Assembly: GCA_028817405.1 (NCBI GenBank)
Contig: JAPPPS010000090.1
Coordinates: 22,570 to 86,569 of the forward strand
DNA: 64,000 nucleotides
Source of the DNA: Gammaproteobacteria bacterium
Lineage (GTDB): Bacteria; Pseudomonadota; Gammaproteobacteria; Arenicellales; Poriferihabitantaceae
Reading direction: 5' to 3'
Shown piece after piece: positions 5,751 through 62,768 of the stretch. Position 1 is the stretch's first letter, and each line of letters opens with the position of its first letter. The notes beneath the pieces are model-generated. The model did no database searches, had not been told where the DNA came from, and saw only the letters and a list, made by a program, of their open reading frames with translations. Position numbers and translations under genes: made by a program.

Positions 5751-6213
5751 ATGCGCGGCGCGGATTTTACCAATCATCGATATCGTACGCGGATTTCGAA
5801 GCGTCAATTTCGCCGCATCTTGCGCTTGTTTGCGCCGGATTTGAAAGCCGTGCAAATCGCCGCCCTGACCCGCTTGAGCCGCGTTTCCATCAACCGCCAC
5901 TTGACCGCGCTGCGCCAGCGCATGGCCCGGCTTTGCGAGCAAGCCGCGCCGATGAGCGGCGAGATTGAGGTGGACGAATCCTACTTCGGCGCGCGCCGCG
6001 CAAAGGGCAAGCATGGGCGCGGCGAGGCGCACATCAACGGCATCGAGGGTTTCTGGGGCTACACCAAGAGCCGCTTGTCAAAGTTCCGCGGCATGAGCAA
6101 ACGCATTTTATCTGCACCTGAAAGAGTGCGAGTTCCGGTTCAATCACCGGCATGATGAGATGTATAAAATCGTGCTGGAATTCTGCCGGGAAGCGCCGAT
6201 TAAGTTATCTTGA
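5751..6213 (+). mobile_element. Decayed IS1595-family (IS1016/ISXO2-like) transposase gene, with an internal deletion and a frameshift
   Basis: GEIEVDESYFGARRAKGKHGRGE joins directly to AHINGIEGFWGYTKSRLSKFRG, so roughly 100 aa of the catalytic core are missing. The conserved tail FYLHLKECEFRFNHRHDEMYKIVLEFCREAPIKLS* is readable only in another frame (6106-6213). Confidence 0.7.
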
Positions 6214-6352
6214 CCCAAAAATAAAATCGCGTTTGCCGTTACCGAGATTTTGCGGGGAATTGACGCCCCGGAAAAGGGTTGACGAAAACGGTTCCGCTCT
6301 GTTAATCTGTCACATCGTAATCCCACGACCACCTGACGGTCCAGAGGCAATA

Positions 6353-7705
6353 ATGGCAACTCTCAACATCCAGCCCAACGCGTTGTTCACCGCCGACAAC
6401 CTGTATGTGTTGAACGGCATGAACAGCGAGTGCATCGACTTGATTTATCTGGACCCGCCGTTTAACTCCAAGCGGTTGTATAAGGCGCCGGTGGGCAGCA
6501 AGGCGGCCGGGGCGGCGTTTGAGGATATGTGGTCTTGGAAGGATGTCGACTCGGCGTTGATGGTGCGGTTGTCGGAGACGCATCCTTTTCTCGTCGATTA
6601 CATCACGGCGATTGAGCGCATTCACAGCAAGGCGATGATGGCGTATATCGCGTATATGGCGCAGCGGTTGTTTGAGATGTATCGGGTGTTGAAGACGACC
6701 GGCAGCATTTATTTGCATTGCGACCCGACGGCGTCTCATTATCTCAAAGTCGTGCTTGACCGCATCTTCGGCAAGAACAATTTCAGGAACGAATTGGTTT
6801 GGCACTACAAAGGGGCATCCATGACAGCGGCCGCAAAGATATATCCGAGGAAGCACGATGTAATCTTGTTCTATACAAAGAGCGAGACCTATACGTTCAA
6901 TCCGCCCCGGCAAAGTGAATTGTCTGACGTGATGAAGCAGCGTTGGGGAAAATACCTCGAATCGGATGGCAAGAGCATTCTGTGGAAAAGCATTAAAAAC
7001 GAGCCGGGGCAAGTGCGCAAGTTTCTGGGGAAACTTACCAAGCAGCTTGGCAGACCGCCTCGTGATGATGATGTGGCATGGGTGGCAAACCCATCCCTTG
7101 TTCGCTCGGTATGGGTTGATTTGCCGGAAGTGAGGAACAACCCAAAGTATTTGGAGTCGACCGGCTATCCCACGCAAAAACCGCTGAAATTGCTCCAGCG
7201 TATCATCAGCGCCAGTTCCAACGAAGGCGATGTGGTGTTGGACCCGTTCTGCGGTTGCGCGACCACTTGCGTGGCCGCCCAGCACTTGCACCGCCGCTGG
7301 ATTGGCATCGACATCTCGGAGACCACCGGGGATTTAATTCGCGACCGGCTCAAGGACGATGTCGGCGCGTTGTTCGATGACTTCGGCCATTTCACCGACT
7401 TGCCGGACCGCAAAGATGTCAAACCCATGTCAAAGCGGCAGGCGAAGCCGCTGTTATACGGCGACCAAGCCGGCGACTGCAACGGATGCAAACGGCATTT
7501 TGAAATCCATGATTTTCATGTCGACCACATCATCCCAAGTTCCAAAGGCGGCGGCGACTTCTACGCCAACTATCAATTGCTGTGCGGCAACTGCAACCGC
7601 ATCAAAGGCAACCGACCGATGGAGTATCTTGTCAAGGCGATTGAAGCCCGCAAGGCAAAACGCGCGGTGTTCGGCGCAACGCCTTCCTCTTTGAGAGAAG
7701 GTTGA
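6353..7705 (+). CDS. Beta-class DNA (probably N6-adenine or N4-cytosine) methyltransferase fused to a C-terminal HNH endonuclease domain
   Basis: Motif IV (LIYLDPPFNS) precedes motif I (VVLDPFCGCATT), which is the beta-class order. The C-terminal ~90 aa read CNGCKRHFEIHDFHVDHIIPSSKGG...YQLLCGNCNRIKGN, an HNH signature. G+C is lower than the flanks. ATG at 6353. Confidence 0.85.
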   Translation: MATLNIQPNALFTADNLYVLNGMNSECIDLIYLDPPFNSKRLYKAPVGSKAAGAAFEDMWSWKDVDSALMVRLSETHPFLVDYITAIERIHSKAMMAYIAYMAQRLFEMYRVLKTTGSIYLHCDPTASHYLKVVLDRIFGKNNFRNELVWHYKGASMTAAAKIYPRKHDVILFYTKSETYTFNPPRQSELSDVMKQRWGKYLESDGKSILWKSIKNEPGQVRKFLGKLTKQLGRPPRDDDVAWVANPSLVRSVWVDLPEVRNNPKYLESTGYPTQKPLKLLQRIISASSNEGDVVLDPFCGCATTCVAAQHLHRRWIGIDISETTGDLIRDRLKDDVGALFDDFGHFTDLPDRKDVKPMSKRQAKPLLYGDQAGDCNGCKRHFEIHDFHVDHIIPSSKGGGDFYANYQLLCGNCNRIKGNRPMEYLVKAIEARKAKRAVFGATPSSLREG

Positions 7706-13275: not shown

Positions 13276-14352
13276 ATGTTTTACCGCGAAGCCGGTAATT
13301 TTCATACCAACTACCGCGCTGACCAGCAGACTTTTCCGCTGGCGGTGGACCGGTGGACGGTGCGCGCGGTGGTGGCGTTCGCGTTTTTGGCGGTGCCGTT
13401 CATCATCAACGACTACTGGGAGAAGTCGGTGCTGGTGCCGTTTTTGGTGTGGTCGATGGCGGCGCTGGGTTTGAATATCTTAACCGGCTACTGTGGCCAG
13501 GTGAGCCTCGGCACCGGCGGTTTCATGGCGGTCGGCGCGTACGCCTGCTACAAACTCATGACCGCGTTCCCCGAACTCAACATGTTCGCGGTGGTGATTT
13601 TGTCCGGCGGGGTGACGGCCGCGGTCGGCATGGTGTTCGGCTTGCCGAGTTTAAAAATCAAGGGTTTTTATTTGGCGGTGGCGACGCTCGCGGCGCAGTT
13701 CTTTTTGGTGTGGCTGTTCAACAAAGTGCCGTGGTTTTACAACTACTCCGCGTCCGGGCAAATCTCGGCCCCGGCGCGCGAGATGTTCGGCGTGCCGGTC
13801 ACCGGGCCGGCCACGCCGCCGTGGGCCTCGTATTTGTTTTGCTTGACGCTGGTCGCGCTGTTTGCGGTGATTGCGCGCAACCTGACGCGCGGGCGCATCG
13901 GGCGTTCATGGATGGCGATTCGCGACATGGACATCGCCGCGGAAATCATCGGCGTGCCGCCGCTGTCGGCGAAGTTGTCGGCGTTCGCGGTCAGTTCGTT
14001 TTATATCGGCGTGGCCGGCGCGCTGTTCTTCGCGGTTTATCTCGGCGCCGCCGAGCCGACCGAAGCGTTCGGCATCGACAAATCGTTTCTGGTGCTGTTT
14101 ATGATTATCATCGGCGGCTTGGGCTCCATCTTCGGCTCGTTCATCGGCGCGGCGTTCTTGACCCTGCTGCCGGTGTTGATGAAGAATATCCTGGTCGGCG
14201 GCTTGGGCTGGCCGACTGATTTGGCGGCGCACCTCATCTTGATGATGGTCGGCGCGCTGATACTCCTGTTTCTCATCGCCGAACCGCACGGCCTGGCGCA
14301 GTTATGGCGCATCGCAAAAGAGAAACTGCGACTGTGGCCGTTCCCGCACTAA
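13276..14352 (+). CDS. livM: Branched-chain amino-acid-type ABC transporter permease (LivM-like)
   Basis: LNILTGYCGQVSLGTGGFMAVGAYACYKL and a multi-TM profile are typical of LivM. Confidence 0.85.
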   Translation: MFYREAGNFHTNYRADQQTFPLAVDRWTVRAVVAFAFLAVPFIINDYWEKSVLVPFLVWSMAALGLNILTGYCGQVSLGTGGFMAVGAYACYKLMTAFPELNMFAVVILSGGVTAAVGMVFGLPSLKIKGFYLAVATLAAQFFLVWLFNKVPWFYNYSASGQISAPAREMFGVPVTGPATPPWASYLFCLTLVALFAVIARNLTRGRIGRSWMAIRDMDIAAEIIGVPPLSAKLSAFAVSSFYIGVAGALFFAVYLGAAEPTEAFGIDKSFLVLFMIIIGGLGSIFGSFIGAAFLTLLPVLMKNILVGGLGWPTDLAAHLILMMVGALILLFLIAEPHGLAQLWRIAKEKLRLWPFPH

Positions 14353-14446: not shown

Positions 14447-15742
14447 ATGAAACTCACTAAACCTGTCACCACCGTGCTGGCCGCGGTCGCCATGGCCGCC
14501 GGCGCCGGTACCGCCGCCGCGGACTTGGTCTTTCCGTCGCTCAGTTACCGCACCGGCGCGTACGCCGCCAACGGCATTCCGTATTTTGACGGTTACGCCG
14601 ATTACATGACGCTACTGAACGAGCGCGACGGCGGCATCGGCGGCGTGCGCGCGCGCGTCATCGAATGCGAGACCGCCTACAACACCGAAAAGGGCGTGGA
14701 GTGCTACGAGTCGACCAAAGGCGAAGGCGCGCTGGTGTATCAGCCGATGTCCACCGGCATCACCTACCAGTTGATTCCCAAGGCCACCGCCGACGACATT
14801 CCGATTCACTCCATGGGCTACGGCCGCACCTCGGCCGCCAACGGCCGCGTGTTCAGCCATGTGTTCAACTATCCGGGCACTTACTGGGACGCGGCGTCGA
14901 TTATCGTCAAGCACATCGACGACGAAGAAGGCGGCGACTTGCGCGGCAAAAACATCGCGCTGGTCTACCACAACTCGGCGTACGGCAAAGAGCCGATTCG
15001 CACGCTGCGCGAGTTGGCGGGCAAGCACGGTTACCGGCTGACCGAGATTCCGGTTGACCATCCGGGCCAGGAGCAGAAGTCGCAGTGGCTGCAAGTGCGG
15101 CGCGAGCGGCCGGACTATGTGATTATGTGGGGCTGGGGCGTGATGAACCAGGTGGCGATTAAGGAGGCCGCGAACATCCGCTTCCCCATGGACAAGTTCA
15201 TCGGCGTGTGGTGGTCCGGCTCGGAGAACGATGTGCTGCCGGTCGGCGCCGGCGCGCACGGCTACAAAGCGGTGTCGTTCCATGGCGTCGGCGAGGACTA
15301 TCCGATTTACCGCGACATCAAACGCTATGTCATCGACCGCGGCAAAGCCTCCGGCGACGGCAACCAACTCGGCACGGTGCTGTACAACCGCGGCATGTAC
15401 GCGGCGCTGTTGGCCGCCGAAGCGGCGCGCACCGCGCAACGCATGCACGGTGTCGCCGACATCACCTCGGGGCAGATGCGCGACGGCATGGAAGCGCTGA
15501 AGATGACGCGCGCGCGCATGACCGAACTCGGCGTGCCGAACTTCGGGCCGGAAATCAACGTCTCCTGCGCCAACCACGGTAACCCGGGCCTGGGCGCGAT
15601 TCAACAGTGGGACGCGAACGCCAAAGCATGGTCGCTGATTACCGACTTCACCGAAGCCGACCGCGCGGTGGTCGACCCCCTCATCGCCGAAGACTCCGCC
15701 GCCTACGCCGCGGAAAACAACATCACACCGCGGGATTGCTGA
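14447..15742 (+). CDS. Liv-type ABC transporter periplasmic substrate-binding protein
   Basis: Signal peptide MKLTKPVTTVLAAVAMAAGAGTAAA. The protein is 431 aa of type-I periplasmic binding-protein character and sits between livM and livF. Confidence 0.85.
   Translation: MKLTKPVTTVLAAVAMAAGAGTAAADLVFPSLSYRTGAYAANGIPYFDGYADYMTLLNERDGGIGGVRARVIECETAYNTEKGVECYESTKGEGALVYQPMSTGITYQLIPKATADDIPIHSMGYGRTSAANGRVFSHVFNYPGTYWDAASIIVKHIDDEEGGDLRGKNIALVYHNSAYGKEPIRTLRELAGKHGYRLTEIPVDHPGQEQKSQWLQVRRERPDYVIMWGWGVMNQVAIKEAANIRFPMDKFIGVWWSGSENDVLPVGAGAHGYKAVSFHGVGEDYPIYRDIKRYVIDRGKASGDGNQLGTVLYNRGMYAALLAAEAARTAQRMHGVADITSGQMRDGMEALKMTRARMTELGVPNFGPEINVSCANHGNPGLGAIQQWDANAKAWSLITDFTEADRAVVDPLIAEDSAAYAAENNITPRDC
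15703..15732. repeat. Left copy of a 30-nt direct repeat (att-like), covering the last codons of the SBP gene
   Basis: CTACGCCGCGGAAAACAACATCACACCGCG matches 21952-21981 at 29 of 30 positions. Confidence 0.85.
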
Positions 15743-15850
15743 GTATGTTCCGTGGGCGGTCGCCGGCAACGGCGGCCGCTCGCGGAATTACGGAGACGGA
15801 CGGTGTGTAAAACCGAAATCGAGCGCCGCGCATCAGGGCGGCTTTAGGTC

Positions 15851-17671
15851 GTGGCGGAGTCGACGACAAAGCCGCGTTATGTGCGGGTTAAATCGCGCGC
15901 CTTAAAGGGTGAAGACACCGTCTTGCGGCTGGCCGGTGGCAAGACCCGGAATTGTCGTCGATTCATTCCGGTGACGAAAGGCGACCGCATTCGTTTTGAC
16001 GGCAAAAAGACATGGGTCAAATTGCCCAACAAGCGGGGTGAAGTCCAAATCGAACCGGGGTGGCGGTCGTGGGGGTATCTTTGCCTCAACGGCAAGCGCA
16101 TTCGGGTAACGTTCAAAGAAATTATAACGCAAGCCGAACTGGATGCCTATCACATGCTCACAAGGTTTCATTACCGAGGCAACGGTGGCGCATGCCGACG
16201 TGTGCCGCTGATTGCCAAAGTGAATGTTTGGAACCTGCCGAAGGTGGTCGGGTTTGTCGAACTCTCGTCAAGTTTGCTCGTCAACGCCGAGCGCAAACGA
16301 AACGTTCTTGACCACCCTTATCAAGACACCACTCATCATGGTGTTGGTTGGAAAATGTGGGACTGGAAAAGCGCAAAAAAATACACCAACGCCATCGTGC
16401 GTATTTCGCGCTGCGTGGTGTACCCCGAATTGCGCGGGGCGGGGCTGTCGCCCATGCTCGCGGATGCGGCGGTTAACTATGCCCGAGAGCGCTGGCACAT
16501 CGGCGGCTTGCGGCCGTGTTTCATTGAAATCATCGCCGAGATGTTGCGCTATTGGCCGTTCGTGGAAAAAACCGGCTTTGTCAAAGTCGGCGAAACCGAA
16601 GGCAACCTGAAGCGCGCGCGCACCGCCATGGAGTATTTGTTGCGGCGCAAAGAAAACGGACGCGGCTACCCGAAAGGCGGCGGCGGCATTATGTCCATGC
16701 ATCGCATGCACGCTGAACAACTCGCCGAGATTCAACAAACCCGTGGCGTTTCGGTGGCCGAAATTCTCCGTTTGCTGGAGCAATCCCCGGACAAACTCGA
16801 CGCCCGCGACTGGGTTTCGTTGCACGACATACTGCGGCGCAAAAAACCCACTTACATGCTCGGCTTAACGCCGTCCGCGAGCGAACATTTGCAAAAATGT
16901 CTCGGTGCATCCGCTTCCGGTCGCCCGGATTCTCATGCGCCCGGTCACCGTTGCGAAACGCATGGCGAAATCGCCGGCATGAAAATTTCCGCGACCGCCA
17001 TGCCGCAAAATTCCGCGCGGTGTCGCCGCGTCCAAGAAGCCTTCGGCATCGTCAGCACCGAATTTAATTCGGTCATCGCGGACCGGCTGGATGTCAAATT
17101 CGAACCGGGCAAAATCGTCTTGGTGAGCGGCTCGAGCGGCGTCGGCAAATCGGCGTTTTTGCGCGCAGTGCGCCATCTGCTTACGGGCAACACCAAGTTG
17201 CCCGACGGCATGCGCGTTGAGTCCGACAACGCGGTTAAGGCGAAGCGCGTCGCGCAACTGCAAAAACCGCCGCGCAACAAAGCGCCGATTGATTTGTTGA
17301 GTCGTTACGACCTTGACGATTCAATGCGCATCCTGGCCCAAGCCGGGCTGGCCGAAGCGCATTTGTTTGTGCGCCCGTCGTTCACGCTCAGCGTGGGGCA
17401 ATCTTACCGTCTCGCGCTGGCGTTGGCGTTGGCAAAAAAGCCGGATGTGCTTTTGATTGACGAATTCTGCGAGCCGCTCGATGAATACACGAGCGCGGTG
17501 ATTTGCCGTAAAATCCGCAAAGCCGCCACGAAAGACGGCATTAGCGTGGTTGTGGCGACCGCCGATGCGCGCAAGGTGTTGCAGGAGTTGCAACCCGACC
17601 GCGTATTGTTGCTGTTGTCCAGCGGCCGGCACGAGTGGCGCGACGGCAAGAAAATCGATTTAGCGCGATGA
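15851..17671 (+). CDS. GNAT-like acetyltransferase domain fused to a C-terminal ABC-type ATPase domain (island gene 1)
   Basis: The GNAT-like core lies around aa 95-250 (ISRCVVYPELRGAGLSPMLADAAVNYA). The C-terminal ABC module has Walker A GSSGVGKS, signature LSVGQSYR and Walker B LLIDEFCEPLD. GTG start; low G+C. Confidence 0.7.
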   Translation: MAESTTKPRYVRVKSRALKGEDTVLRLAGGKTRNCRRFIPVTKGDRIRFDGKKTWVKLPNKRGEVQIEPGWRSWGYLCLNGKRIRVTFKEIITQAELDAYHMLTRFHYRGNGGACRRVPLIAKVNVWNLPKVVGFVELSSSLLVNAERKRNVLDHPYQDTTHHGVGWKMWDWKSAKKYTNAIVRISRCVVYPELRGAGLSPMLADAAVNYARERWHIGGLRPCFIEIIAEMLRYWPFVEKTGFVKVGETEGNLKRARTAMEYLLRRKENGRGYPKGGGGIMSMHRMHAEQLAEIQQTRGVSVAEILRLLEQSPDKLDARDWVSLHDILRRKKPTYMLGLTPSASEHLQKCLGASASGRPDSHAPGHRCETHGEIAGMKISATAMPQNSARCRRVQEAFGIVSTEFNSVIADRLDVKFEPGKIVLVSGSSGVGKSAFLRAVRHLLTGNTKLPDGMRVESDNAVKAKRVAQLQKPPRNKAPIDLLSRYDLDDSMRILAQAGLAEAHLFVRPSFTLSVGQSYRLALALALAKKPDVLLIDEFCEPLDEYTSAVICRKIRKAATKDGISVVVATADARKVLQELQPDRVLLLLSSGRHEWRDGKKIDLAR

Positions 17672-19014
17672 AATCGACCAAGAAAATTTTCACCAAAGCG
17701 CGGTTCAGCACCGACGCAACCTCGACCAACCTCAACTTTGACCAAGGCGCGCGGGCGGTGACCATCGGGCGGGACCGCGGCATCCGCCACGGCTATGTCG
17801 GCCGCGTTTGCGAGTCATCAAAAGGCAAGAGCATTTTTGACGCCTCGGTGTGGATGAACACCAGTTTCCCCAGCGTCATCGGGGTGTTTGGCATGCGCGG
17901 CACCGGCAAGAGTTTTAACTTGGGCGTTTTTACCGAATGCCTGGCCGGCGACCGGCAAGTATGCACGGGCAATGACAAGTCGCCGGCGGTGGTGATTTTT
18001 GATGTGCAGAATCAATTTTGGACGTCGGCGATGCAACCGACCGCCGAGCATGACTCCGCCCAACTGAAAATGCTCGCCCAATGGCATCTCAAACCAAGCG
18101 TGGTGCCGAATGTATGTTGCTGGACGCCGACCGGCAAAAAGTCGCCGCTTCCGGGCGCGCGGGAATACCAAATTCACCCCGACCAACTCGACAATTCCGA
18201 TTGGCTTGCACTGTTGGAGCAAGAACGGTATTCGCCGATGGGGCAGGCGTTAATCGAGTTGTTGCGCAAGGCGAAAGATTGCGTTCCGCGCGCCTTGGCG
18301 AAAACGCTTCACAATGCCGGCGCGTTGCCGTCGGCTCACCCGACTACGGTCGATGGGTTGCGCTGGCGTTTGGAGTCACTCGCCGAGTCCGACTTAATCG
18401 GCGCGCCGGGCGTGGACATCAAAGAACTGTTGGTGCCGGGCCGGGTGTCGGTCATGCTGTTGCGTGATTTGCCGGAGTCGTTGCGCGCACTGACCGCGGC
18501 CACGGTCGTGCGCCAACTCGCGGCGCGGATGACGCAGTTTCATCAAACGCGCCGCCTCGCCGAACGCGGCAAGGGCGCTGCGCCAAAGGTCGACCTCCCG
18601 CATCATTTATGGTGCATAATGGACGAAGCGCATGTGATTGCGCCGCGCGAAGGCAAAACGCCCGCAAACGCGCCGCTGGTGGACTATGTCAAACGCGGCC
18701 GCGATTCCGGGCTATCGTTGATTTTCGCCACGCAACAACCGTCCGCGGTCGACAACAAACTGATGAGCCAAGTTGACATCACATTCACCCATGCGCTCGG
18801 TTTTGAAACCGACGTGCAGGCCGCCATCGACCGCATGCCCACACGCAAGCCAGCCGTTTACCGTTGTGGCGGCGAAAAACTGTCAACTCCCGGCGACTTG
18901 ATTCGCTCGCTGAAACCGGGCGAAGCGATCATCGCCGATTCCGCAAGCCAACGACCGTTCATCGCGCAAATGCGCCCGCGGCTGTCGTTGCATGGCGGGG
19001 ATACGCCGACCTGA
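17668..19014 (+). CDS. HerA/FtsK-superfamily (DUF87-like) ATPase (island gene 2)
   Basis: ATGA overlap with gene 1. Walker A GMRGTGKS, Walker B LWCIMDEAHVIAP, and GRDSGLSLIFATQQPSAVDNKLMSQVDITFTHAL typical of HerA-like translocases. The N-terminus resembles a HAS barrel (HGYVGRV). Confidence 0.75.
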   Translation: MKSTKKIFTKARFSTDATSTNLNFDQGARAVTIGRDRGIRHGYVGRVCESSKGKSIFDASVWMNTSFPSVIGVFGMRGTGKSFNLGVFTECLAGDRQVCTGNDKSPAVVIFDVQNQFWTSAMQPTAEHDSAQLKMLAQWHLKPSVVPNVCCWTPTGKKSPLPGAREYQIHPDQLDNSDWLALLEQERYSPMGQALIELLRKAKDCVPRALAKTLHNAGALPSAHPTTVDGLRWRLESLAESDLIGAPGVDIKELLVPGRVSVMLLRDLPESLRALTAATVVRQLAARMTQFHQTRRLAERGKGAAPKVDLPHHLWCIMDEAHVIAPREGKTPANAPLVDYVKRGRDSGLSLIFATQQPSAVDNKLMSQVDITFTHALGFETDVQAAIDRMPTRKPAVYRCGGEKLSTPGDLIRSLKPGEAIIADSASQRPFIAQMRPRLSLHGGDTPT

Positions 19015-19017
19015 CCC

Positions 19018-20259
19018 GTGGCTTACGATCCGCACACGTGCTACCGCGAGTTAGGGCGCGCATTGTCGCGCTACAATGGATACACGAATTACCCAAAATT
19101 GGAACGCATCGCGGACATCATCGCCGGCGATGATGAGGGTGATTTATTCGCAGGCAAGCCATACCGTTATGCGCATGAAGTGATTGAAAAATTCATGAGT
19201 AGAGGCAAAAAAGACAAGCAGCGCAGTGCGGAAGTGTATTTACAACACGCGATTGCGTTTGGTTTCCTTTATCGCGCCGTTCCGGGCAGTGCTCGTTTGC
19301 GCGCGCAATCCAAGAAGCGCGTGGAATCGAATTCACACATTGCTTTGTCGTCCTTGGGGCGCGCCTATCGTTCTGCCGCCGCTTTGCCGGTTGAGGAAGG
19401 CGTTGCTTTCCGACGGTGGCTTTGGGAATACGTCCTGCTCGATGCGGATTTCGACATGTATGGATTGCTGTTGAAACTGAGTTTGGCGAATAACGCGAAA
19501 TTCATCGAGCGCAAACCGTTCGAGGATGCATACAAAAGTATGGAAGCCAAAAGGAATGAGTGGTTAAAAGACCGCATTCCCTCGCCGGCGGTGCGCGAAC
19601 GCGTGGAAAAATACATTCAGTGGAAAATTCCTGAACGCAGTCGACGAACATCAAATTCATCCGACTCCAATATCGATGCTTCGGTGCGGGTGTTGAGTTC
19701 CACCACCTACGGGTATCACCACAGTCAGCGCAAAGGCTGGGCGTGTGGGAGCATCTTGCAACACGCGAATGGCGCCGGCAACCTGACGGAAGCGGGGGAG
19801 CATTTCGCGCGTTTGTTGCCATCGCTGGATGCACAACCTCTGTTTTGGATTGGCCCACATTTTGAGTGCACAAACTCTCTTTTTCTTAAGGCCGCCGGCA
19901 TCCCCCGCGAACAGTGTTCACCGGTGTGGGATTGGCTGACGCATGCTTCGCGCGACGGCAATGAAAACCGAAACGAATATGACACAGCGTTCGTGGATGC
20001 TGTTGCGAAACACATGGAAAGCGGTTATCCGTATCTCAGGCTTGCCACATTCGACCAAGCCGCTTTGGATACGGCCGTGCCGTATATCCATTTTCTGGCG
20101 CACCGGCGCAAAATTGACTTGAACGGCGATGCAGTGCATGGCATATTCGCCGATGTGTTTAAGACGCATCGCGCCACTTTCGTTTGCACCCTGGGGCGCA
20201 ACTATTCAAAAACCCATTTTTGGCTTCGCACGCACTCCAATGGTGAATCAAAAAAATAA
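19018..20259 (+). CDS. Hypothetical protein, no recognisable domain (island gene 3)
   Basis: A 413-aa ORF starting at GTG 19018, 3 nt after the gene 2 stop. Its composition matches the island genes and I recognised no motif. Confidence 0.55.
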   Translation: MAYDPHTCYRELGRALSRYNGYTNYPKLERIADIIAGDDEGDLFAGKPYRYAHEVIEKFMSRGKKDKQRSAEVYLQHAIAFGFLYRAVPGSARLRAQSKKRVESNSHIALSSLGRAYRSAAALPVEEGVAFRRWLWEYVLLDADFDMYGLLLKLSLANNAKFIERKPFEDAYKSMEAKRNEWLKDRIPSPAVRERVEKYIQWKIPERSRRTSNSSDSNIDASVRVLSSTTYGYHHSQRKGWACGSILQHANGAGNLTEAGEHFARLLPSLDAQPLFWIGPHFECTNSLFLKAAGIPREQCSPVWDWLTHASRDGNENRNEYDTAFVDAVAKHMESGYPYLRLATFDQAALDTAVPYIHFLAHRRKIDLNGDAVHGIFADVFKTHRATFVCTLGRNYSKTHFWLRTHSNGESKK

Positions 20260-20788
20260 AACGTTCCCCGAGCCATTGCCGGAGATTTTGCATACGCGTC
20301 GGTTTTTCAACGCGTTTACCAAGTGCATCAGCGACCGACCGTCGGTGGTCGATATTGTGGTGCCGTATATCGGCGAGAATCGATGGGGTGGTATTGTGAG
20401 GTTTGCCGAGATTCTTCTTAAGAGGGAATGTCAGTTCAACCTCACCACCGCGCGACCGTCCACCGCCCCCAATCGCATTTCCGCGGCGGAAGCGCAACGG
20501 TTGGTTCGGCTGGGAGTAGAATTGCGAATCCATGGCAACCGCCCAATGTTGCACTCCAAAATCTACCAATTCACATATCCCGTGAAGTACCCCGCCCTGG
20601 ACGATGTGGTGCGGGTGGCGTTTGTTGGCTCGGCCAACTTTTCCCGCGGCGGGCTTGAAACCAATGTCGAAACTATGGCATGTTTCCGTGGACCGAAAAG
20701 CAACGGCAGAGTTGCCGCGGCAATCGCCAGCATTGCGGGCGGCAGCTACCCATACAACCTACATCAGCATGAGGAGACCGATGACTGA
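20240..20788 (+). CDS. Small PLD-superfamily (single HKD-like, Nuc/DrmC-type) putative nuclease (island gene 4)
   Basis: LHSKIYQF...VAFVGSANFSRGGL is a degenerate HxK...GSxN motif. ATG at 20240 overlaps the end of gene 3 by 20 nt. Confidence 0.6.
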   Translation: MVNQKNKTFPEPLPEILHTRRFFNAFTKCISDRPSVVDIVVPYIGENRWGGIVRFAEILLKRECQFNLTTARPSTAPNRISAAEAQRLVRLGVELRIHGNRPMLHSKIYQFTYPVKYPALDDVVRVAFVGSANFSRGGLETNVETMACFRGPKSNGRVAAAIASIAGGSYPYNLHQHEETDD

Positions 20789-21917
20789 ATCGACCAAAAT
20801 CAATCCGCAAGAATTCGGGTTTGAGCGTAGCCCGTTCACCAATGTGGCGACCGCCGAGTCCGCCAAAATATGGGCGGGAATGGAGGACACGAAAGAGTTT
20901 CTCCAAGACGTTATTGACAGTGTTCGCCCCGATGATATCGGCGAGCGAGAATTTGTCATTATCCACGGCTCTTACGGTGGCGGCAAAACGCATGCTTTCC
21001 AATACTTTAAGAACCAGGTCGAAAAAAGCGGCCGAGGATTCGCTTTTTTTGCGAGTCGCGTCCGCATTGACGACAAGGCGAGTTTCTCCGAACTCGCCAA
21101 GACCATCGTGTCCGAGCATCGTGCGATGTTGCCGGATTTGGTCAGCCATGTACAACGAGCGGTTGAGCGCGCGGTGTACGAGACAAGGGAAGAGTCCGGC
21201 GACACCGCTGACCAGGCAACGCGCCAGAAACGCGCAATTAATAAATTAGTCGACAATGACTGTCGGCAATTGGTGGAAGATTTCGTCTTCCGCGGTTCCG
21301 CTGATGCCGACAAACTGGTCGAATTGGTCATTGGCGGAAAGCAGAGCGATCACACAGCGGTTTCTCGATTTTCGGCATTGCTCGGCGCGATGACGATGCC
21401 CATCGGCGACTGCCCCGCAAAATTCGATGCGGTTTACTTGTTTCTCGACGAAGTCGAGAGCATTCTCGACATCGGGTATAAATGGGTCTTTTCTTTTTTT
21501 AGCGCGTTGCGCGGACTGATTGACAGCACCGCTGGCTATCATTGTGCCATCGTGATGGCGTTCAGCACCGATGCCGCGCGCCTCGAAGCGGAACTTTCAG
21601 ATTTCTTGCGCCAACGGCTTACGCGTGCGCTCTTTGAGATGCGCGAACTGGAAGATGATGAAGGCAAGAATTTCATCAAAGAATTCCTTGATGCGCATCG
21701 GGCTTCTCCGGCTGATGCGGGCGAAGAGTTTGCGCCTTTCTCGGAAGGTGTGATCGATGAAATTCTGGAACGGCATAACGAAGTCGTGCCGCGAAAATTG
21801 ATTCTGGACATGACGCGCGTTTTTGAACGGGCGGTACGTCGGGGCGGCATACAGCCGGGCGAGGAAATCCCGACGCAAATGGCGAAGGATATTTTGGCAA
21901 AAATGCCGCCCTTGTGA
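20781..21917 (+). CDS. P-loop NTPase, AAA+/ORC-like (island gene 5)
   Basis: Ribosome-binding site GAGGAG, then ATG at 20781 overlapping the gene 4 stop (ATGACTGA). Walker A GSYGGGKTH and Walker B VYLFLDEVESI. Confidence 0.7.
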   Translation: MTESTKINPQEFGFERSPFTNVATAESAKIWAGMEDTKEFLQDVIDSVRPDDIGEREFVIIHGSYGGGKTHAFQYFKNQVEKSGRGFAFFASRVRIDDKASFSELAKTIVSEHRAMLPDLVSHVQRAVERAVYETREESGDTADQATRQKRAINKLVDNDCRQLVEDFVFRGSADADKLVELVIGGKQSDHTAVSRFSALLGAMTMPIGDCPAKFDAVYLFLDEVESILDIGYKWVFSFFSALRGLIDSTAGYHCAIVMAFSTDAARLEAELSDFLRQRLTRALFEMRELEDDEGKNFIKEFLDAHRASPADAGEEFAPFSEGVIDEILERHNEVVPRKLILDMTRVFERAVRRGGIQPGEEIPTQMAKDILAKMPPL

Positions 21918-21951
21918 CCCCGCTTTGGGATTGATATGATCGCCGCCATGT

Positions 21952-21981
21952 CTACGCCGCGAAAAACAACATCACACCGCG
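21952..21981. repeat. Right copy of the 30-nt direct repeat bounding the island
   Basis: CTACGCCGCGAAAAACAACATCACACCGCG has one mismatch to 15703-15732. Weaker similarity extends on both sides (CGCCGCC upstream, TGAGT downstream). Confidence 0.85.
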
Positions 21982-22141
21982 CGACCATTGAGTGCGCGGC
22001 TCGTGTACAGTGGCCGCGCAGTCACGGTGACTGTGACTTGCGCTGTCACCGCGCGCGTTTTTCGAAAGCATTTCGTTTACGGAAACGCTTAACTCGCCGG
22101 CCGCTTTTTATTTAGCCGGCGGACAGCAATCAGCGAGTCCC

Positions 22142-22738
22142 ATGAAACAGAAAAACTCTGTTGCGTTGTTTTGGCGCATACTGTTTCTCATTGCCGTTGT
22201 TGCCTTAATTCAGTTTGGCAACAAGGATGGGCTTAATTTTTCACCGGCGGCCGGTAGCTCTTGGTACCAGCTTGGGTGGTCGGTTGGGCAATTTGCTTTC
22301 TGGCTTGTGGTAGTGGCCTTGCTGTTTGCGGGCAAGAAAGTTCAACTGGCGTTGCTTGACTATAAGCGGAGCAAAATGGTTTTCAAAGTGTTCGGCTATT
22401 TGGCACTTTTCGGCGCTGGAATTGCACTCGTTATTCTCTGGGAAATCGCCTGGTTCCTGTTATTGTTCATGTTAATTGGTTCACTGGCATTTCTCGTTCC
22501 TGTTGCCTTTGTTCACTTTGTTGTTTCCAGAAAACGCATCGAAGTGACGCAAGTTATATTTGGAACATCCATGCTTTGCTGGATAATTTCGGTGGTATCA
22601 CTCCATCAGTCGATGGGGGCTTTTCTCGCGCATGCTGTATTGATTGGTGTTTTTTGTGCAGCGGCCATCTGTATCACCAATTTGCTTGCGGCGAAATTTT
22701 CGCGCACGAGTGATGAAGGTGAACTGCGCGATGAGTAA
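22142..22738 (+). CDS. Hypothetical polytopic membrane protein (about 6 TM), low G+C
   Basis: A 198-aa hydrophobic ORF. Its stop overlaps the livF start codon, and it lies outside the direct repeat. Confidence 0.6.
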   Translation: MKQKNSVALFWRILFLIAVVALIQFGNKDGLNFSPAAGSSWYQLGWSVGQFAFWLVVVALLFAGKKVQLALLDYKRSKMVFKVFGYLALFGAGIALVILWEIAWFLLLFMLIGSLAFLVPVAFVHFVVSRKRIEVTQVIFGTSMLCWIISVVSLHQSMGAFLAHAVLIGVFCAAAICITNLLAAKFSRTSDEGELRDE

Positions 22739-23540
22739 TTCCACTGTCGTCCTCAGCGTCAAAAACATCGAAGTCATTTATGACCATGTGATTTTGGTGT
22801 TGAAGGGCGTGTCGTTGGATGTGCCGGCCGGCGGGATTGTCGCGCTGGTCGGCGCCAACGGCGCGGGCAAGACCACCACCATCAAGTCGATTTCCAACCT
22901 GTTAGGCACCGAGCGCGGCGAGGTGACCAAGGGCTCCATCGAGTTCCGCGGCCGCCGCATCGACCGCTTGACCCCGGCCGAACTGGTGCGGCGCGGCGTG
23001 GTGCAAGTGATGGAGGGGCGGCATTGTTTCGAGCATCTGACGGTGGAGGAAAATCTCCTGACCGGCGCTTACACCCGCCGCGGCCGCGCCGCCATCGCGC
23101 GCGACTTGGAGCGCGTTTACGCCTACTTCCCGCGCCTGAAAGAACGCCGCCGCAGCCAGGCCGGCTACACCTCCGGCGGCGAGCAGCAGATGATGGCGGT
23201 CGGGCGCGCGCTGATGGCGAAGCCGAGCGTGATTCTGCTCGACGAGCCGTCGATGGGTTTGGCGCCGCAGTTGGTGCAGGAAATCTTCGACATCGTGGCG
23301 CAATTGAACCGCCGCGAAGGCGTCACCTTTTTACTCGCCGAACAAAACACCACCATGGCGTTGCGCTACGCGACCTACGGTTACATTTTGGAAAACGGCC
23401 GCGTGGTCATGGACGGCGACGCCAAGGCGCTTGCCGAGAATGAAGATGTCAAGGAATTTTACTTGGGCGTCAGCGGCGACAACCGCCGCAGTTTCCGCGA
23501 AGTCAAACAATACCGCCGGCGCAAACGGTGGCTGGCGTGA
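22731..23540 (+). CDS. livF: Branched-chain amino-acid-type ABC transporter ATP-binding protein (LivF-like)
   Basis: MSNSTVVLSVKNIEVIYDHVILVLKGVSL..., Walker A GANGAGKTT, signature TSGGEQQM, Walker B ILLDEPSMGLAP. Confidence 0.9.
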   Translation: MSNSTVVLSVKNIEVIYDHVILVLKGVSLDVPAGGIVALVGANGAGKTTTIKSISNLLGTERGEVTKGSIEFRGRRIDRLTPAELVRRGVVQVMEGRHCFEHLTVEENLLTGAYTRRGRAAIARDLERVYAYFPRLKERRRSQAGYTSGGEQQMMAVGRALMAKPSVILLDEPSMGLAPQLVQEIFDIVAQLNRREGVTFLLAEQNTTMALRYATYGYILENGRVVMDGDAKALAENEDVKEFYLGVSGDNRRSFREVKQYRRRKRWLA

Positions 23541-54590: not shown

Positions 54591-57500
54591 ATGACCATTC
54601 TCGATAACCACAGTCGGGTAAGCAGCGTTGGCGCACATTTGCGCGGGCTGCTCGGTGACGGTGCGCATACTTTGCGCATCGTCTCCGCCTACTTCACAAT
54701 ACATGCATATGAGGGGTTAATGCGCGAATTAGAAAATGTCGACACGGTGCGATTTTTGTACGGTGACCCCGGGTCTGTTGGGGAAGTCGACCCGGGCGAG
54801 AAGAAAAACAAAGGATTTGATTTAAGTGAACAAGGCTTATTGCCGCAACAATTGCTTCGACAAAAGCGTTTGGCAAAAGATTGCGAAAAATGGATAAAAG
54901 AACGAGTCAAAATTCGCACCATCAAGCAAGTAAATTTTTTGCACGGCAAAATGTATCACATCGAACGGTCCGCTTATCCGGATGCGGCGGTAATCGGGAG
55001 TTCAAACTTCACGCGCCGCGGACTGGGTTTTGACGACAGTGCAAATTTGGAACTCAACTTGTCCGTTGACGATGCTTCGACTTGTGATTCGTTGAAGCAG
55101 TGGTTTGATGCCATTTGGAGCAACAAGCATCTTAGTAGAGACGCCAAGGATGAGGTGCTGGCCGCGCTTCGTCGAATCGGCGAAAACCGCTCTCCGGAAC
55201 TTGTTTATTTCAAGACCTTGATGGAAATTTTTCGCGACCGAATAGAAGCGCGCGAACAAACAAGAGAGTGGCTTGGGGTGACGGACCTCAGAGATACACA
55301 GGTATGGCGAACGCTGTTTCCATTTCAGCGCGACGGTGTGATTGGAATCATCAATCGCTTGGAGCAACACAACGGATGCATTCTTGCCGATAGTGTCGGG
55401 CTTGGTAAAACCTACACGGCGTTGGCGGTCATTCGTTACTATGAAGCGAAAAATCAGCGGGTGTTGGTGCTCTGCCCAAAGAAACTCAGCGAAAACTGGA
55501 AACTCTACCCGACGCAATTCGGACAGCAAGGCAACCCTTTCAAGGAAGATAATTTCCATTATACCGTGTTGCATCACACCGACCTGTCACGACAATCAGG
55601 TCAATCAAACGGCATTGATTTGGCCGGATTTGATTGGAGCGGCTACGGTTTGGTGGTGATAGACGAATCTCACAACTTTCGCAACGAATCCAGCAGTACA
55701 CGCGACGAAAACGGTGTGATTATTCGCCACAGTCTTTATGAACGGTTGTTGCAGGATGTGATTCAACAGAGCGGCAAAACCAGCGTGTTGATGCTGTCAG
55801 CGACTCCAGTCAATACTTCGTTGGATGACCTGCGCAATCAAATCTATTTTATGACCGGGAAACGGGAAGATGCCTTCAAAGAAACCCTCGGCATAACGAG
55901 TGTTCGTTCCATGCTTGGTCGCGCGCAAAAACAGTTCAAGGAATGGGAGCGGCGAGGCGGGAACAAAGACAAACAAAAATTGTTCGATGCCCTGGGGGGC
56001 GACTTTTTTGCGCTGTTAGACGCCGTTTCCATCGCCAGGTCGCGCCGCCATGTAAAGATATTTTACCCGGAAGTCGTCAAGGAAATCGGCGGCTTTCCAA
56101 CGCAGACCAAACCCGAAAACGAATCCCCGCCAACGGATGCTCTGGGGAAACTCTCCTACGAAGAACTGAATCACGAGATTCAGAAATTTCGACTTTCGAT
56201 TTACACTCCGGCGAAATATGTCATCGGAGAACAGGCGCGACACGATCTGGAAGAGGAGAAAAAGAAATTCAACTTCAACCAAGTTGACCGTGAACGTTGG
56301 TTGATTGGCATGATCCGCGTAAATTTCCTCAAGCGCTTGGAAAGCGCCGCGCCGTCTTTGGAAAAAACATTAGGCCGGACCATTCAAAAAATTGAGGAGC
56401 AAGTGGATAAAATAGGGAGATATAAGTCGAAAATCGACGATGAAGGCGACGCCAACGCATCTTTGGAAGATGATTGGGATGACGAGGATTTTGTCGCCAG
56501 CAAGGCTCGACACACCTTTCACTTTAAAGATTTGGATCTGTCGAAGTGGGCGGATGATTTACGCAAAGATATGGATGTGCTGGAGGTGGTGCGCGTGAAA
56601 GTTGGCGCCATTACCCCGCAACGAGATAAAAAATTGGCCACGCTGAAACATAGAATTTTCGACAAACTGGCCAACCCGACCACTAACAAGGACGGACGCA
56701 AGAATCGCAAAATTCTGGTGTTCACTGCGTTTAAGGACACGGCCGTTTACTTGTACGATTATCTGATGCCCCTGATTCAGGATGCGTTTAATGTCGAGTG
56801 CGCGATGGTTGCCGGAGACGAGACAAAAACCACTTATGGCAACAACAATTTTAATGATATTTTGACCAACTTTGCCCCCATCGGACGCGGTCGATTTAAT
56901 CGTGATGAAGTTGGGCAGCCCATCCCAGATGAAAAGCCGGAGATAGATGTTCTTATCGCTACGGATTGCATCTCGGAGGGGCAGAATCTGCAAGACTGCG
57001 ACCGGGTGGTTAATTATGACATTCACTGGAATCCGGTTCGTTTGGTTCAACGTTTTGGCCGGATCGACCGCATCGGGAGTCGCAACTCAGCGGTGGGCAT
57101 GATTAATTTCTGGCCGACGAAGGAACTTAACTACTACCTGGACCTGAAAAACCGCGTAGAAGCACGGCTGGCTTTGATGGACGCTACCGCTACAGGAGAT
57201 GAACCCGCCGTTACCGAGAATGAGATGCGCGAGAGCGCCGAAACGGAGATGGGTTTTCGAGATGCACAAATTCGTCGATTGCATGAAAGTGCATTTGGTC
57301 TCGATGATCTGGACGACAGTGTAACCATGAGCGATTTTTCGTTGGACGATTTTATCGCGCAATTAATGAATTATTTGGAGAGAAACCGTGCAGAATTAGA
57401 ATGCGTTCCCTTGGGAGTATTCGCGGTTGCTGATTGCGCGAAAATGCAACCGAGCGTTCTTTCCAATATCGCTTCTCCGGGAGTGATTTTTTGTCTGCGA

Positions 57501-57920
57501 CAGAAAAATTCTCCACAAGGGAAAAGTGTACGCAATCCCTTGAAAGAATATTATTTGGTGTATGTTCGCGATGATGGCGAGGTGCGGTACAATTATACGC
57601 ATGCCAAACAAATTCTGGAAATTTTCGGAGAATTGGCGCAAAAACAGGATGCCCCGTTATTGCCATTGTGCGATATTTTCGATATCGAAACACAGAATGG
57701 GCGTGACATGGGCAAATATGATACCCTGTTAGACAGGGTCATCACCGCCATTAGTCGGAAATTTGACCGACAAGTTGCCGGCACTCTGGCTTACCGAAAT
57801 GCCGTTGTGCCGACAAAGGCCGAGCAACCTCAGACCGCGGAAAATTTTGAGCTCGTAACCTGGTTAGTCATCAAAGATGGCGAAAAATTGCCCGCGGACT
57901 CCGAACACAAATTATCCTGA
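54591..57920 (+). CDS. PLD-superfamily nuclease domain fused to an SNF2-family helicase (1109 aa)
   Basis: The N-terminal HKD-like motif is LHGKMYHIE...[13 protein letters not shown]. SNF2 motifs are [11 protein letters not shown] (I), [11 protein letters not shown] (II), [15 protein letters not shown] (III) and [44 protein letters not shown] (V-VI). G+C is low. The gene starts 4 nt after the yajC stop. Confidence 0.85.
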   Translation: [1109 protein letters not shown]

Positions 57921-57932
57921 TGGTATAGCGCA

Positions 57933-59435
57933 ATGAACGATAATGGCATCTGGGTGGCGCTGAAAGATTTTGAGTGCACGCCCTTGCGTGATGGGGCAAC
58001 CAAGTTGCTGAGCAAGTTTGGGTTGACCAGCGACCGCGTGATGGGGGCGGATAGCGGGTCATTGGATGATTTTCTGAACGAGTTTAATGTCAATCAAAAA
58101 TTGACCGACTTGGAGCGCAAAAATATTCGTCGACTTGTGCGAAAAATTGTCTTCCTTTTTCAAGTTACGCAAGACGAAATTTCCTTGTTACCGTCGAGCG
58201 GAGAGGATGGTGGCTTGCTCGCAAATTCCATCATTTTTATCGTTGCCGATGTAACTTGCTCACCTCATTTAACTCAAGATGAGTTACAGGGTATTATTAG
58301 GCCATTGCGCAAGGGATTTTCAGCCCCAGTGGTCGGTTTGTTCCGATATGGCGGGCGGGTGGCATTCACGGCGGTGGCGCATAGGCAGCATCAAATTCGA
58401 CCGGAAATAGATGTGCTTTTCGGCGCTGGCGTGACCGAAAACGTAAACCTCTCCAACCCAGACTGGCGACACAAGGATTTTTTGCTGAAATGGCAAAGAA
58501 TCATAGCGTCCGGCTCTGCGGCAACCTTCGGTGATGTGGCGCAACATCTCATTAATGTTCCAAACAAATATCGCGCAGACAAACTGTGTCAAAATAGCGA
58601 TTCTCCCGATATTTTCCGTATGTATATCTGGGATGTTAGTCGCTGGCCGCTTCTTACCAAAGCGGATGAAAAAGAATTGGCCCGGCGAATGGATCATGAT
58701 GCGGATGCAAAAGAACGGTTCTACTGTTCAAATTTAAGACTGGTCATCTGGCAAGCCAAAAGATATGCCGATGTTTCTAACATCGATATCCTGGATTTGA
58801 TTCAGGAAGGCAATATCGGCTTGATGAAAGCAGTCAACAAGTTTGAGTATTGGCGCGGCAATAAATTCTCGACCTACGCGACCTGGTGGATCCGCCAAGC
58901 GATTACGCGGTATATTGCCGACCATGGCAGACTCATTCGGGTTCCCGTCCATGCATTCGAAGATATTCGACGCTTGGATCGCGTATGCTATACAATTTTT
59001 AGAAGAACGGGGCGGGATGCAACGCCTGATGAAATATCGGAAAAGTTGCAATGGTCCAAGGAAAAAGTGACCAGAGTTCTGAATATTGTCGAAGATCCGG
59101 TTTCCATGGAAGCGTCGACCGGGGACGACGTGGATATTAGTCGCTTGAAAGGTTCTATCGAAGACGAGAATATTGTTTCGCTGGTCGATGTCGTCACCAG
59201 TTCATGTCTCAAACAAGCAATTCGGACGCTTCTGAACTCGCTCACCAAGCGCGAGGCCGAGGTGTTGCGGATGCGTTTCGGCATCGGCATGAGTACCGGC
59301 CACACTCTGGAAGAAATTGGCAATCGCTTCGGTGTCACACGCGAACGCATACGCCAAATTGAGTCCAAGACTCTCAAGAAACTGCGTCGGTCGAGCCGCT
59401 CCAGACCCCTGCGCGTTTTTCTCGAAACCCCTTGA
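57933..59435 (+). CDS. Sigma-70-family (RpoD/RpoS-like, regions 1.2-4) factor with a novel ~220-aa N-terminal domain
   Basis: Region 2 reads [53 protein letters not shown]. Region 4 reads [49 protein letters not shown]. Region 1.2 starts near aa 225 ([17 protein letters not shown]). I did not recognise aa 1-220. Confidence 0.85.
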
Positions 59436-62765: not shown

Positions 62766-62768
62766 GAG

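Follow-up and report, generated by a model that had tools for sequence, protein, structure and literature searches.

A strain-variable five-gene cassette encoding a GNAT-ABC protein, a HerA-type ATPase and a PLD-family nuclease as a candidate undescribed defence system

In the HerA/FtsK capture systems a HerA ATPase is combined with a nuclease, an Orc/Cdc6-type AAA+ ATPase and a multi-winged-helix protein that evolves fast, and the logic proposed for these systems is that invader DNA is intercepted and pumped into the nuclease (PMC10853773). In BREX-Related Capture (BRC), HerA is found together with a GNAT protein, a DUF6079 ATPase, a DUF4007 DNA-binding helical protein, a STAND NTPase and PglZ (PMC12839542). 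The locus considered here shares the theme of these systems and differs from them in several of its parts. It consists of five genes, g1 to g5, at 15851-21917 on the + strand of a 64,000-nucleotide (nt) stretch of contig JAPPPS010000090.1 from a Gammaproteobacteria bacterium; this whole stretch is called the window, coordinates are window positions, and numbers with the prefix L denote other loci or contigs. A preliminary description, made from the letters of the window, had proposed the cassette as a candidate undescribed defence system, and that proposal is supported by the present results: the set receives no named assignment, its synteny is conserved, and the block is both strain-variable and inserted.

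With moderate confidence, the block may be read as a horizontally acquired, self-contained five-gene candidate system directed against invading DNA, whether phage or plasmid, and as a new architecture within the HerA capture or restriction theme. The parts that point this way are of defence type: g2 has as its nearest solved relatives the HerA proteins of anti-phage systems, g4 carries an HKD motif, g5 resembles BrxD, and g1 contains a GNAT domain related to DruA. The features of the locus are as follows.

14447-15742, + strand: host gene for a Liv-type substrate-binding protein (SBP), left flank (Peripla_BP_6; 90% nt identical to L043)
15703-15744, + strand: left 42-nt repeat copy, native SBP sequence (the 3' end with its stop codon), closer to the empty site of L043 than is the right copy
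15745-15850, + strand: leader 5' of g1, from about 15794 onwards common to the sister cassette L041
15851-17671, + strand: g1, predicted GNAT-ABC protein, 606 amino acids (aa) (AlphaFold2 (AF2) model, Foldseek, Pfam)
17668-19014, + strand: g2, predicted short HerA/FtsK-type ATPase, 448 aa (PF01935; family profile)
19018-20259, + strand: g3, fast-evolving helical protein, 413 aa (no family match; AF2 model)
20240-20788, + strand: g4, predicted single-HKD PLD-family nuclease, 182 aa (PLDc_2; RE_NgoFVII)
20781-21917, + strand: g5, predicted AAA+ ATPase of the AAA_16/BrxC-BrxD/ORC-Cdc6 neighbourhood, 378 aa (AAA_16; BrxC_BrxD)
21952-21993, + strand: right 42-nt repeat copy, a relic of the SBP 3' end (repeat comparison)
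22039-22065, + strand: terminator-like hairpin and T run 3' of the cassette (consensus match only)
22142-22738, + strand: g6, multi-pass membrane protein, 198 aa, G+C 47-50%, separate cargo outside the repeat pair
22732-23540 (ATG 22732), + strand: host gene for a LivF-type ABC ATPase, right flank (ABC_tran; in L042 and L043 the aligned gene follows SBP directly)

The packing of the five genes is exactly as first described, the open reading frame (ORF) list giving an ATGA overlap at g1/g2, a 3-nt gap at g2/g3, a 20-nt overlap at g3/g4 and an 8-nt overlap at g4/g5. Six metagenome contigs with an identical g2 agree, independent gene calls on them returning the same products of 606, 448, 413, 182 and 378 aa. 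The G+C content of the cassette genes is 0.52-0.60, against 0.61-0.69 in the neighbouring host genes, and at third codon positions (GC3) it is 0.58-0.72 against 0.80-0.86; the low-G+C contrast is real, its size as earlier put by eye (about 50% against the high 60s) having been overstated. A sigma-70-like site was not found on the + strand of the leader 5' of g1, so that read-through from the host operon is possible.

A scan with a g1 profile, using one genome per species, yielded 33 loci, which were sorted by BLASTP, clustering and family hidden Markov models. In 12 further genomes (L007, L008, L010-L013, L015-L018, L026 and L028) the genes lie in the same order, g1-g2-g3-g4-g5, an arrangement here called type A. 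The hosts span at least two phyla (alpha-, beta-, gamma- and deltaproteobacteria and Gemmatimonadota), with Halieaceae, Pseudohongiellaceae, Burkholderia ubonensis (L011), Rhizobium (L016), Actibacterium (L017), Erythrobacter and Pelagibius among them, as well as one deltaproteobacterium and one Gemmatimonadota metagenome-assembled genome. In two variant loci, Acidovorax L031 and L037, g1-g2-g3 is accompanied by a g5 gene in convergent orientation and by a PLD protein of greater length (512 aa), and in L009 (Arenicellales) and L032 g1-g2 is visible up to the contig end. Amino acid identity to the window proteins is 45-63% for g2, 36-56% for g1, 22-38% for g3, 26-39% for g4 and 29-32% for g5, and at several type A loci the gene junctions overlap by 4-8 nt. 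The synteny on which the first proposal depended is thus found elsewhere, and g1-g5 is a conserved, translationally coupled unit in distant bacteria. Some copies are in decay: g2 and g5 are frameshifted in L010, g1 is fragmented in L034 and L035, and L033 is also decayed. Such copies fit the behaviour of defence genes, which are typically gained and lost rapidly. Scattered defence genes, namely canonical HerA, SoFic, CapP, PDC-S41 and MkoA, stand beside some type A copies. Cultured carriers of the cassette are available in Burkholderia ubonensis LMG 20358, Rhizobium sp. WW22, Acidovorax kalamii and Pelagibius marinus.

A separate observation concerns L017, where the Actibacterium cassette is followed, some 600 nt downstream, by a 482-aa HerA-like gene (16601-18049, - strand). 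This gene is probably the type A flank member that scores 7e-206 on the PADLOC anti-phage HerA model, and if this identity is correct then two HerA-based systems stand side by side.

In the AF2 model of g1 (pLDDT 85.9, pTM 0.84), residues 11-90 form an eight-strand, beta-rich domain at the N-terminus and residues 94-268 a GNAT-like alpha/beta domain; a helical linker (279-351), in which a GGGG loop is invariant, leads to the ABC nucleotide-binding domain (372-606), which matches ABC_tran in Pfam at 1.2e-11. Whole-chain Foldseek comparison is dominated by the ABC domain, and its top matches, at about 1e-11, are transporter nucleotide-binding domains (OppD, Wzt, HrtA, LptB), not those of SMC or OLD types. 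No variation is seen across the g1 family in Walker A, the LSxGQ signature or the Walker B aspartate, and 19 of 21 sequences keep the catalytic glutamate. The H-loop histidine, in contrast, is missing throughout the family, its place being taken by ATxx ('VATAD' and variants; g1 residues 569-572, window 17555-17566). Because the histidine is absent while the Walker A, signature and Walker B motifs are intact, slow ATP turnover is probable, and the ABC domain probably serves as an ATP-dependent dimerisation switch. A profile of the N-terminal beta domain found nothing significant among PDB sequences.

Residues 94-268, here read as a DruA-type domain, can be assigned to the GNAT superfamily, since both the predicted fold and the R/Q-x-x-G-x-G/A loop are present. 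The predicted order of strands and helices fits the GNAT fold, and the acetyl-CoA loop motif R195-x-x-G198-x-A/S (195-200) is invariant across the family. The call also draws on the JGI annotation of g1 relatives as 'ABC-type ATPase with predicted acetyltransferase domain' and on more distant GNAT-ABC relatives, 780-900 aa long, which were retrieved by a search with the N-terminal 400 residues alone; these match Acetyltransf_1 at 26-32 bits (cutoff 20.7) and DruA/PF14236 at up to 37 bits (cutoff 27; 3e-9 to 1e-7). A role for g1 as part of the Liv transporter was considered and rejected, in view of the empty sites described below and of its unrelated contexts elsewhere.

The other domains in the parts list given earlier likewise hold, the GNAT being weak on the window protein and above the Pfam threshold in distant homologues. 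The g2 protein matches PF01935 (DUF87/HerA) at 1.6e-5 (25.6 bits, threshold 23.2), and its family profile finds the solved HerA structures of anti-phage systems 9c1m (8e-14), 8xau (4e-11) and 8ziq (7e-10), together with 4d2i (7e-6); Walker A (GxxGxGKS) and Walker B (DEAH) are invariant, and on these matches g2 is an ATPase of the HerA/FtsK clade in a short form. The g4 protein matches PLDc_2 (1.3e-8) and RE_NgoFVII (3.6e-4), and its residues H105, K107, G130, S131, N133 and E144 are invariant across the cassette PLDs and the DrmC-like proteins of the type B loci described below. The g5 protein matches AAA_16 (1e-5) and BrxC_BrxD (0.0044), an archaeal member of its family in L036 reaching 1.5e-12 on the latter; Walker A (GxxGxGK) and Walker B (DE) are invariant, and solved structures give P-loop-level matches only (DnaA-related proteins, DnaI/DnaC loaders). 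As judged from these alignments, the catalytic motifs are intact in all four enzymes of the cassette. The remaining protein, g3, had been left as 'unknown', and indeed it has no match in Pfam, PADLOC or NCBIfam. Its AF2 model (pLDDT 82.9, pTM 0.85) has no whole-chain structural neighbour in Foldseek, and its best partial matches, to the FokI DNA-binding domain, MukE/F, MarR/FabT, the ORC winged helix and Fur/BlaI, are not significant (E >= 0.6); for that reason it is only tentatively regarded as a DNA binder made of several winged-helix domains. It is evolving fast, identity across loci being 22-38%, compared with 45-63% for g2.

The g1 family is not confined to this set of partners. In at least seven genomes (L020-L023, L025, L027 and L029) g1 heads a run of genes DrmE-DrmA-DrmB-DrmC, here called type B; remnants occur in L024, L033 and L035, the last two decayed and L035 bearing a g1/DrmB fusion. 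The hosts are Planctomycetota, Acidobacteriota, Gemmatimonadota, Latescibacterota and Thermodesulfobacteriota, and the flanks contain integrases, resolvases, HipA, PIN and ArdC. An 850-aa protein matches DrmE_C at 5e-46, and DrmA (1.5e-159), DrmB (3e-50) and a DrmC-type PLD (2.6e-18) are also recognised, so that by these scores the type B genes form a DISARM class-2-like core. Class 2 DISARM, as Ofir and co-workers are said to have described it in 2018, has DrmE-DrmA-DrmB-DrmC with the methyltransferase DrmMII as fifth gene. No methyltransferase family appears among the best 25 flank families at the type B loci, and it would seem that g1 occupies the DrmMII slot there. A further variant is archaeal (Thermoplasmata; L036 4486-9641), in which a GNAT-ABC gene is divergent from an operon for a Csa1/Cas4-like nuclease (5.8e-25), a 333-aa protein and a BrxD-like ATPase.

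A mechanism can be proposed along these lines. The putative DNA binder g3 and the BrxD/ORC-like AAA+ protein g5 would find or license the target DNA; a g2 HerA hexamer would pump it, and a dimer of the g4 PLD protein would cut the DNA so delivered. The g1 protein would act as an ATP-gated dimerising switch, its DruA-type GNAT transferring an acetyl (acyl) group in a self-marking or licensing step such as the methyltransferase provides in DISARM. What g1 acts on is the least certain part of this scheme. ATPase-coupled GNAT enzymes such as TmcA/NAT10 make N4-acetylcytidine in RNA, and by analogy g1 could be an ATP-driven nucleic-acid acetyltransferase: host DNA would be labelled as self by an acetyl (acyl) group instead of by methylation, and this for two unrelated restriction engines, HerA-PLD and DrmE-A-B-C. 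We regard this more specific idea as decidedly doubtful; were it true, prokaryotic immunity would be seen to tell self from non-self by an epigenetic means of a new kind. More generally, the presence of g1 in the methyltransferase slot makes acetylation, of DNA or of protein, as a self-marking or licensing step a testable question. If the cassette does defend its host, it would also give the first functional handle on DruA-type GNAT domains, whose part in immunity none of the papers searched was found to describe.

Several points weigh against the defence interpretation or parts of it. Location in defence islands, raised in the preliminary description, is not the rule: most other copies lie among housekeeping genes, the type A flanks being mostly GAPDH, transketolase, PGK, cytochrome bd and glutamine synthetase, with a few resolvase- or integrase-type genes. 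The g1 family is rare, its N-terminal 400 residues retrieving 204 cluster representatives out of 1.84 billion, and g1 homologues are absent from 72,556 plasmids and 50,697 phages. Taken by itself, the window protein resembles GNATs only below the Pfam threshold (Acetyltransf_CG 0.0024, Acetyltransf_1 0.028), and the family profile of that region finds no solved GNAT among PDB sequences. The tentative winged-helix assignment of g3 depends on partial matches that are not significant, and the absence of a methyltransferase from type B loci was judged on the 25 best flank families. Finally, a HerA capture system need not mark self, and the modification role proposed for g1 comes only from its replacement of DrmMII in the DISARM-like loci.

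Within the same defence system g1 could instead be the sensor-effector of an abortive infection response. The ABC domain would sense a phage product or an anti-restriction protein and free the GNAT, which would acetylate aminoacyl-tRNA or a protein and so stop growth, while HerA-PLD would be the first-line nuclease. AriA is the sensor in PARIS, and the toxins TacT and AtaT acetylate aminoacyl-tRNA. An ABC domain that lacks the H-loop histidine suits a switch, and g1 is portable between two motor and nuclease sets in the manner of back-up effectors. ABC ATPases are recurrent sensors in conflict systems (PMC12839542), and GNAT domains fused to DndF have been interpreted by Rakesh et al. as co-effectors (PMC10853773). 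However, g1 is the most conserved gene and always the first, translationally coupled one, not an optional add-on, no antitoxin-like partner is seen, and g1 fills the methyltransferase slot in the DISARM-like loci. We consider this alternative, the main rival for g1, unlikely.

The history of the locus bears on the two remaining explanations, and on the defence reading itself. The claim that the block is bounded by repeats and lies between Liv-type SBP and ATPase genes was borne out. The direct repeat of 42 nt (15703-15744 and 21952-21993) matches at 36 of 42 positions around an exact 19-mer core, which occurs twice in the window and not once in 100 shuffles; a metagenome scan with the repeat core gave no match. 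Relatives with an empty site were traced through SBP homologues: the SBP-to-LivF spacing is about 110 nt in L043 (90% nt identity) and about 100 nt in L042 (77%), compared with 7 kb in the window. Since the SBP and LivF-type ATPase genes are adjacent there, the site is empty in both relatives, and the block is an insertion into the host Liv-type operon between these genes. In the sister strain represented by L041 the cassette occupies the same place in the operon with different joints: window 15590-15793 is missing and the leader is fused into the SBP coding region, and the right end joins codon ~8 of LivF directly, with neither right repeat nor g6.

The two strains differ also in what the cassette encodes. 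Between the window and L041 amino acid identity is 99% for g1 and 97% for g2, and it is 41% for g3, 44% for g4 and 41% for g5; DNA similarity stops about 110 nt into g3, and L041 7959-10879 corresponds to window 19018-21917. On this comparison g3-g4-g5 has been exchanged between strains as one block at the g2/g3 boundary. The swap argues that g3-g5 is one co-adapted recognition-and-cleavage module and g1-g2 a second, conserved one, and it offers, between near-identical strains, a natural experiment on the genes that set target specificity.

It could be supposed instead that the cassette is no host defence and that a small mobile element without an integrase relies on it for maintenance or transfer, with HerA/FtsK as pump, g5 as ORC-like initiator, g3 as origin binder and the PLD protein as nickase. 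The block is indeed repeat-bounded and is inserted at varied chromosomal sites, and HerA/FtsK and Orc/Cdc6 genes are common in mobile elements, from which some capture systems are thought to derive (PMC10853773). Yet integrase, relaxase, replicase and transposase genes are all absent between the repeats, by the ORF list and family scans; the g1 family has no member on the plasmids and phages searched and is elsewhere tied to the DISARM core; and the L041 cassette is fused into host genes without repeats. Nor was any recombinase, tRNA attachment site or RNA gene found at the block. This explanation appears very unlikely. That the cassette serves the housekeeping tasks of DNA repair or chromosome processing in the way of HerA-NurA, or supplies the Liv transporter with an accessory ATPase, is scarcely credible: HerA and nucleases do act in archaeal end resection, 4d2i and 7f6d are among the g2 matches and the g1 ABC domain is structurally closest to transporter nucleotide-binding domains, but close relatives whose operon is intact lack the block, which is rare, patchily distributed and foreign in composition, an allelic block swap has occurred, and elsewhere the cassette does not lie beside transporters.

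The interval between the SBP and ATPase genes contains a further low-G+C gene, g6, on which the preliminary description had not remarked. It lies outside the repeat pair, has the lowest G+C of the region, and its stop codon overlaps the LivF start. It has no family match in Pfam, PADLOC or NCBIfam and no homologue at any other cassette locus, and is present only in this lineage. As a sixth component of the system it was rejected, being outside the repeats, absent from L041 and without a homologue near other cassettes.

The Liv operon has received other insertions. Sister contigs carry a second one in the interval between the LivM permease and SBP genes (L040 4657-9411; L041 2-3483; window 13312-13353), with three UvrD-like genes of 775 aa, 118 aa (UvrD_C_2) and 627 aa (GajB-like, 8e-20); within it the start of the permease gene recurs as a 42-nt copy (90%), and the SBP acquires a new N-terminus from the insertion. 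In the 77% identical relative L042 (1729-6840), genes for OmpA, a MotA/ExbB-like protein and DUF8245 occupy the LivG/LivH slot and an N6_N4 methylase-T5orf172 fusion lies between the two permease genes, the SBP-LivF slot being empty, and in L043 a Fic gene lies upstream of LivM. This working operon appears to be a hotspot for integrase-free insertion. Elsewhere in the window, a gene of G+C 0.53 at 6152-7705, about 8 kb upstream of the cassette and preceded by a 134-aa ORF without a match, encodes a fusion of an N6/N4 DNA methyltransferase with an HNH nuclease. A second low-G+C island (0.49) at 54591-59435 encodes a 1109-aa HKD(PLD)+SNF2 helicase (PADLOC C3a139, 5e-110; DrmD-like, 1e-31) and then a 500-aa sigma-70-type protein. 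At the window edge (62091-63989, - strand) are two ORFs of 224 and 406 aa with G+C of 0.51-0.53 and no match in Pfam or PADLOC.

Set against the named systems, the cassette had been said to match none. PADLOC gives no system assignment to the five-gene set, returning only weak generic P-loop and PLD matches (mad3 6.7e-15, mad8 5e-13, HerA 1e-7, ZacB/DrmC 3e-5 to 9e-4, BrxD 8.5e-4), and the NCBIfam scores of the cassette proteins are far under every cutoff; that much of the claim stands, but there is a conceptual precedent in the HerA/FtsK capture systems (PMC10853773). No description of a GNAT-ABC defence component, or of the five-gene set as such, was found in the literature searched, although mention in the ABC-ATPase classification of Krishnan et al. 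(2020) or in the MADS paper is possible; in the text of the YprA/ARMADA preprint the words GNAT, ABC, acetyltransferase and HerA are all absent.

MADS is the system to which g1 and g2 have their best PADLOC matches, mad3 and mad8. The g1-mad3 match is confined to the ABC domain, and the g2-mad8 match is of only 47 bits; ordinary transporter ATPases in flanks score higher on mad3 (1.6e-22). The MADS paper is said to describe eight genes including a methyltransferase and a kinase, whereas the cassette has five genes and neither of these. From PARIS, Gabija, Septu and Lamassu, which pair an OLD- or SMC-clade ABC protein with a Toprim or other effector, the cassette differs in that the AriA, GajA, PtuA and LmuB matches cover 30-40 residues around Walker A only.

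With Druantia type I the link is DruA (DUF4338/PF14236), whose model is matched by the distant GNAT-ABC relatives of g1; the g1 family also partners a YprA-type helicase (DrmA/B), as DruA does with DruE. The window g1, however, falls below the DruA model and carries an ABC ATPase, and DruB-E are absent. With BREX there is only the weak BrxD-type match of g5 (8.5e-4, 2.3e-3), no match to PglZ, PglX or DUF6079 being found. The resemblance to BRC can be drawn part for part, DUF6079 corresponding to g5, DUF4007 to g3, STAND to the ABC domain of g1 and PglZ to the PLD protein g4, with HerA and a GNAT in both; but PglZ, DUF6079, DUF4007, STAND and TGT are all lacking from the window. In BRC the GNAT stands alone as a protein of about 150 aa, its motifs are unlike those of g1, and inspection of the alignment led to rejection of the two as one family.

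The resemblance to class 2 DISARM lies in g4, a small and possibly DrmC-like PLD protein with the invariant HKD residues of the type B DrmC-like proteins, its scores on the DrmC models being weak (PADLOC DrmC 8.8e-4; NCBIfam DISARM_DrmC_I 20 bits, cutoff 133). The window lacks DrmA (YprA-type helicase), DrmB (DUF1998) and DrmE, HerA and g3 replacing the helicase module: none of the six window proteins matches DrmA or DrmB, models that score strongly on the type B loci. Nor is there any methyltransferase between the repeats, where DISARM would have DrmMI or DrmMII, the nearest being the separate methyltransferase-HNH fusion already mentioned. The SIR2-HerA and DUF4297-HerA (Nezha-type) systems have in common with the cassette a hexameric HerA ATPase translationally coupled to an enzymatic partner, and provide the best solved-structure matches of g2. 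In the cassette, however, g2 is some 120-250 residues shorter, the partner is a GNAT-ABC protein and there are three further genes; SIR2 and DUF4297 have no match in it, and the NCBIfam scores are 14-22 bits against cutoffs of 800-970, those on the anti-phage HerA models being 14-19 bits (cutoffs 800-850). Membership in DISARM, SIR2/DUF4297-HerA, BREX/BRC, MADS, Druantia and the OLD/SMC-type ABC systems thus fails in each case on the defining components.

The closest likeness is to the HerA/FtsK capture systems, with which the cassette shares a HerA/FtsK ATPase, an AAA+ ATPase of the Orc/Cdc6 neighbourhood, an endonuclease and a fast-evolving partner, here tentatively of winged-helix type, as well as mobile, patchy neighbourhoods. 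The Orc/Cdc6 ATPase of the capture systems has an inserted inactive restriction endonuclease and a C-terminal winged helix, and g5 matches AAA_16 and BrxC_BrxD weakly; their multi-winged-helix protein is DndG/FokI-like, and g3 shows the partial, non-significant matches noted above. There are also differences. The nuclease is here a stand-alone HKD/PLD protein, in place of the active restriction-endonuclease fold of the capture systems, and the first and most conserved gene encodes a GNAT-ABC protein, of which the text and one supplement of PMC10853773 make no mention. If the cassette defends its host, it would be a compact, portable 6.2-kb system assembled from parts otherwise spread over HerA, DISARM, BREX and Druantia.

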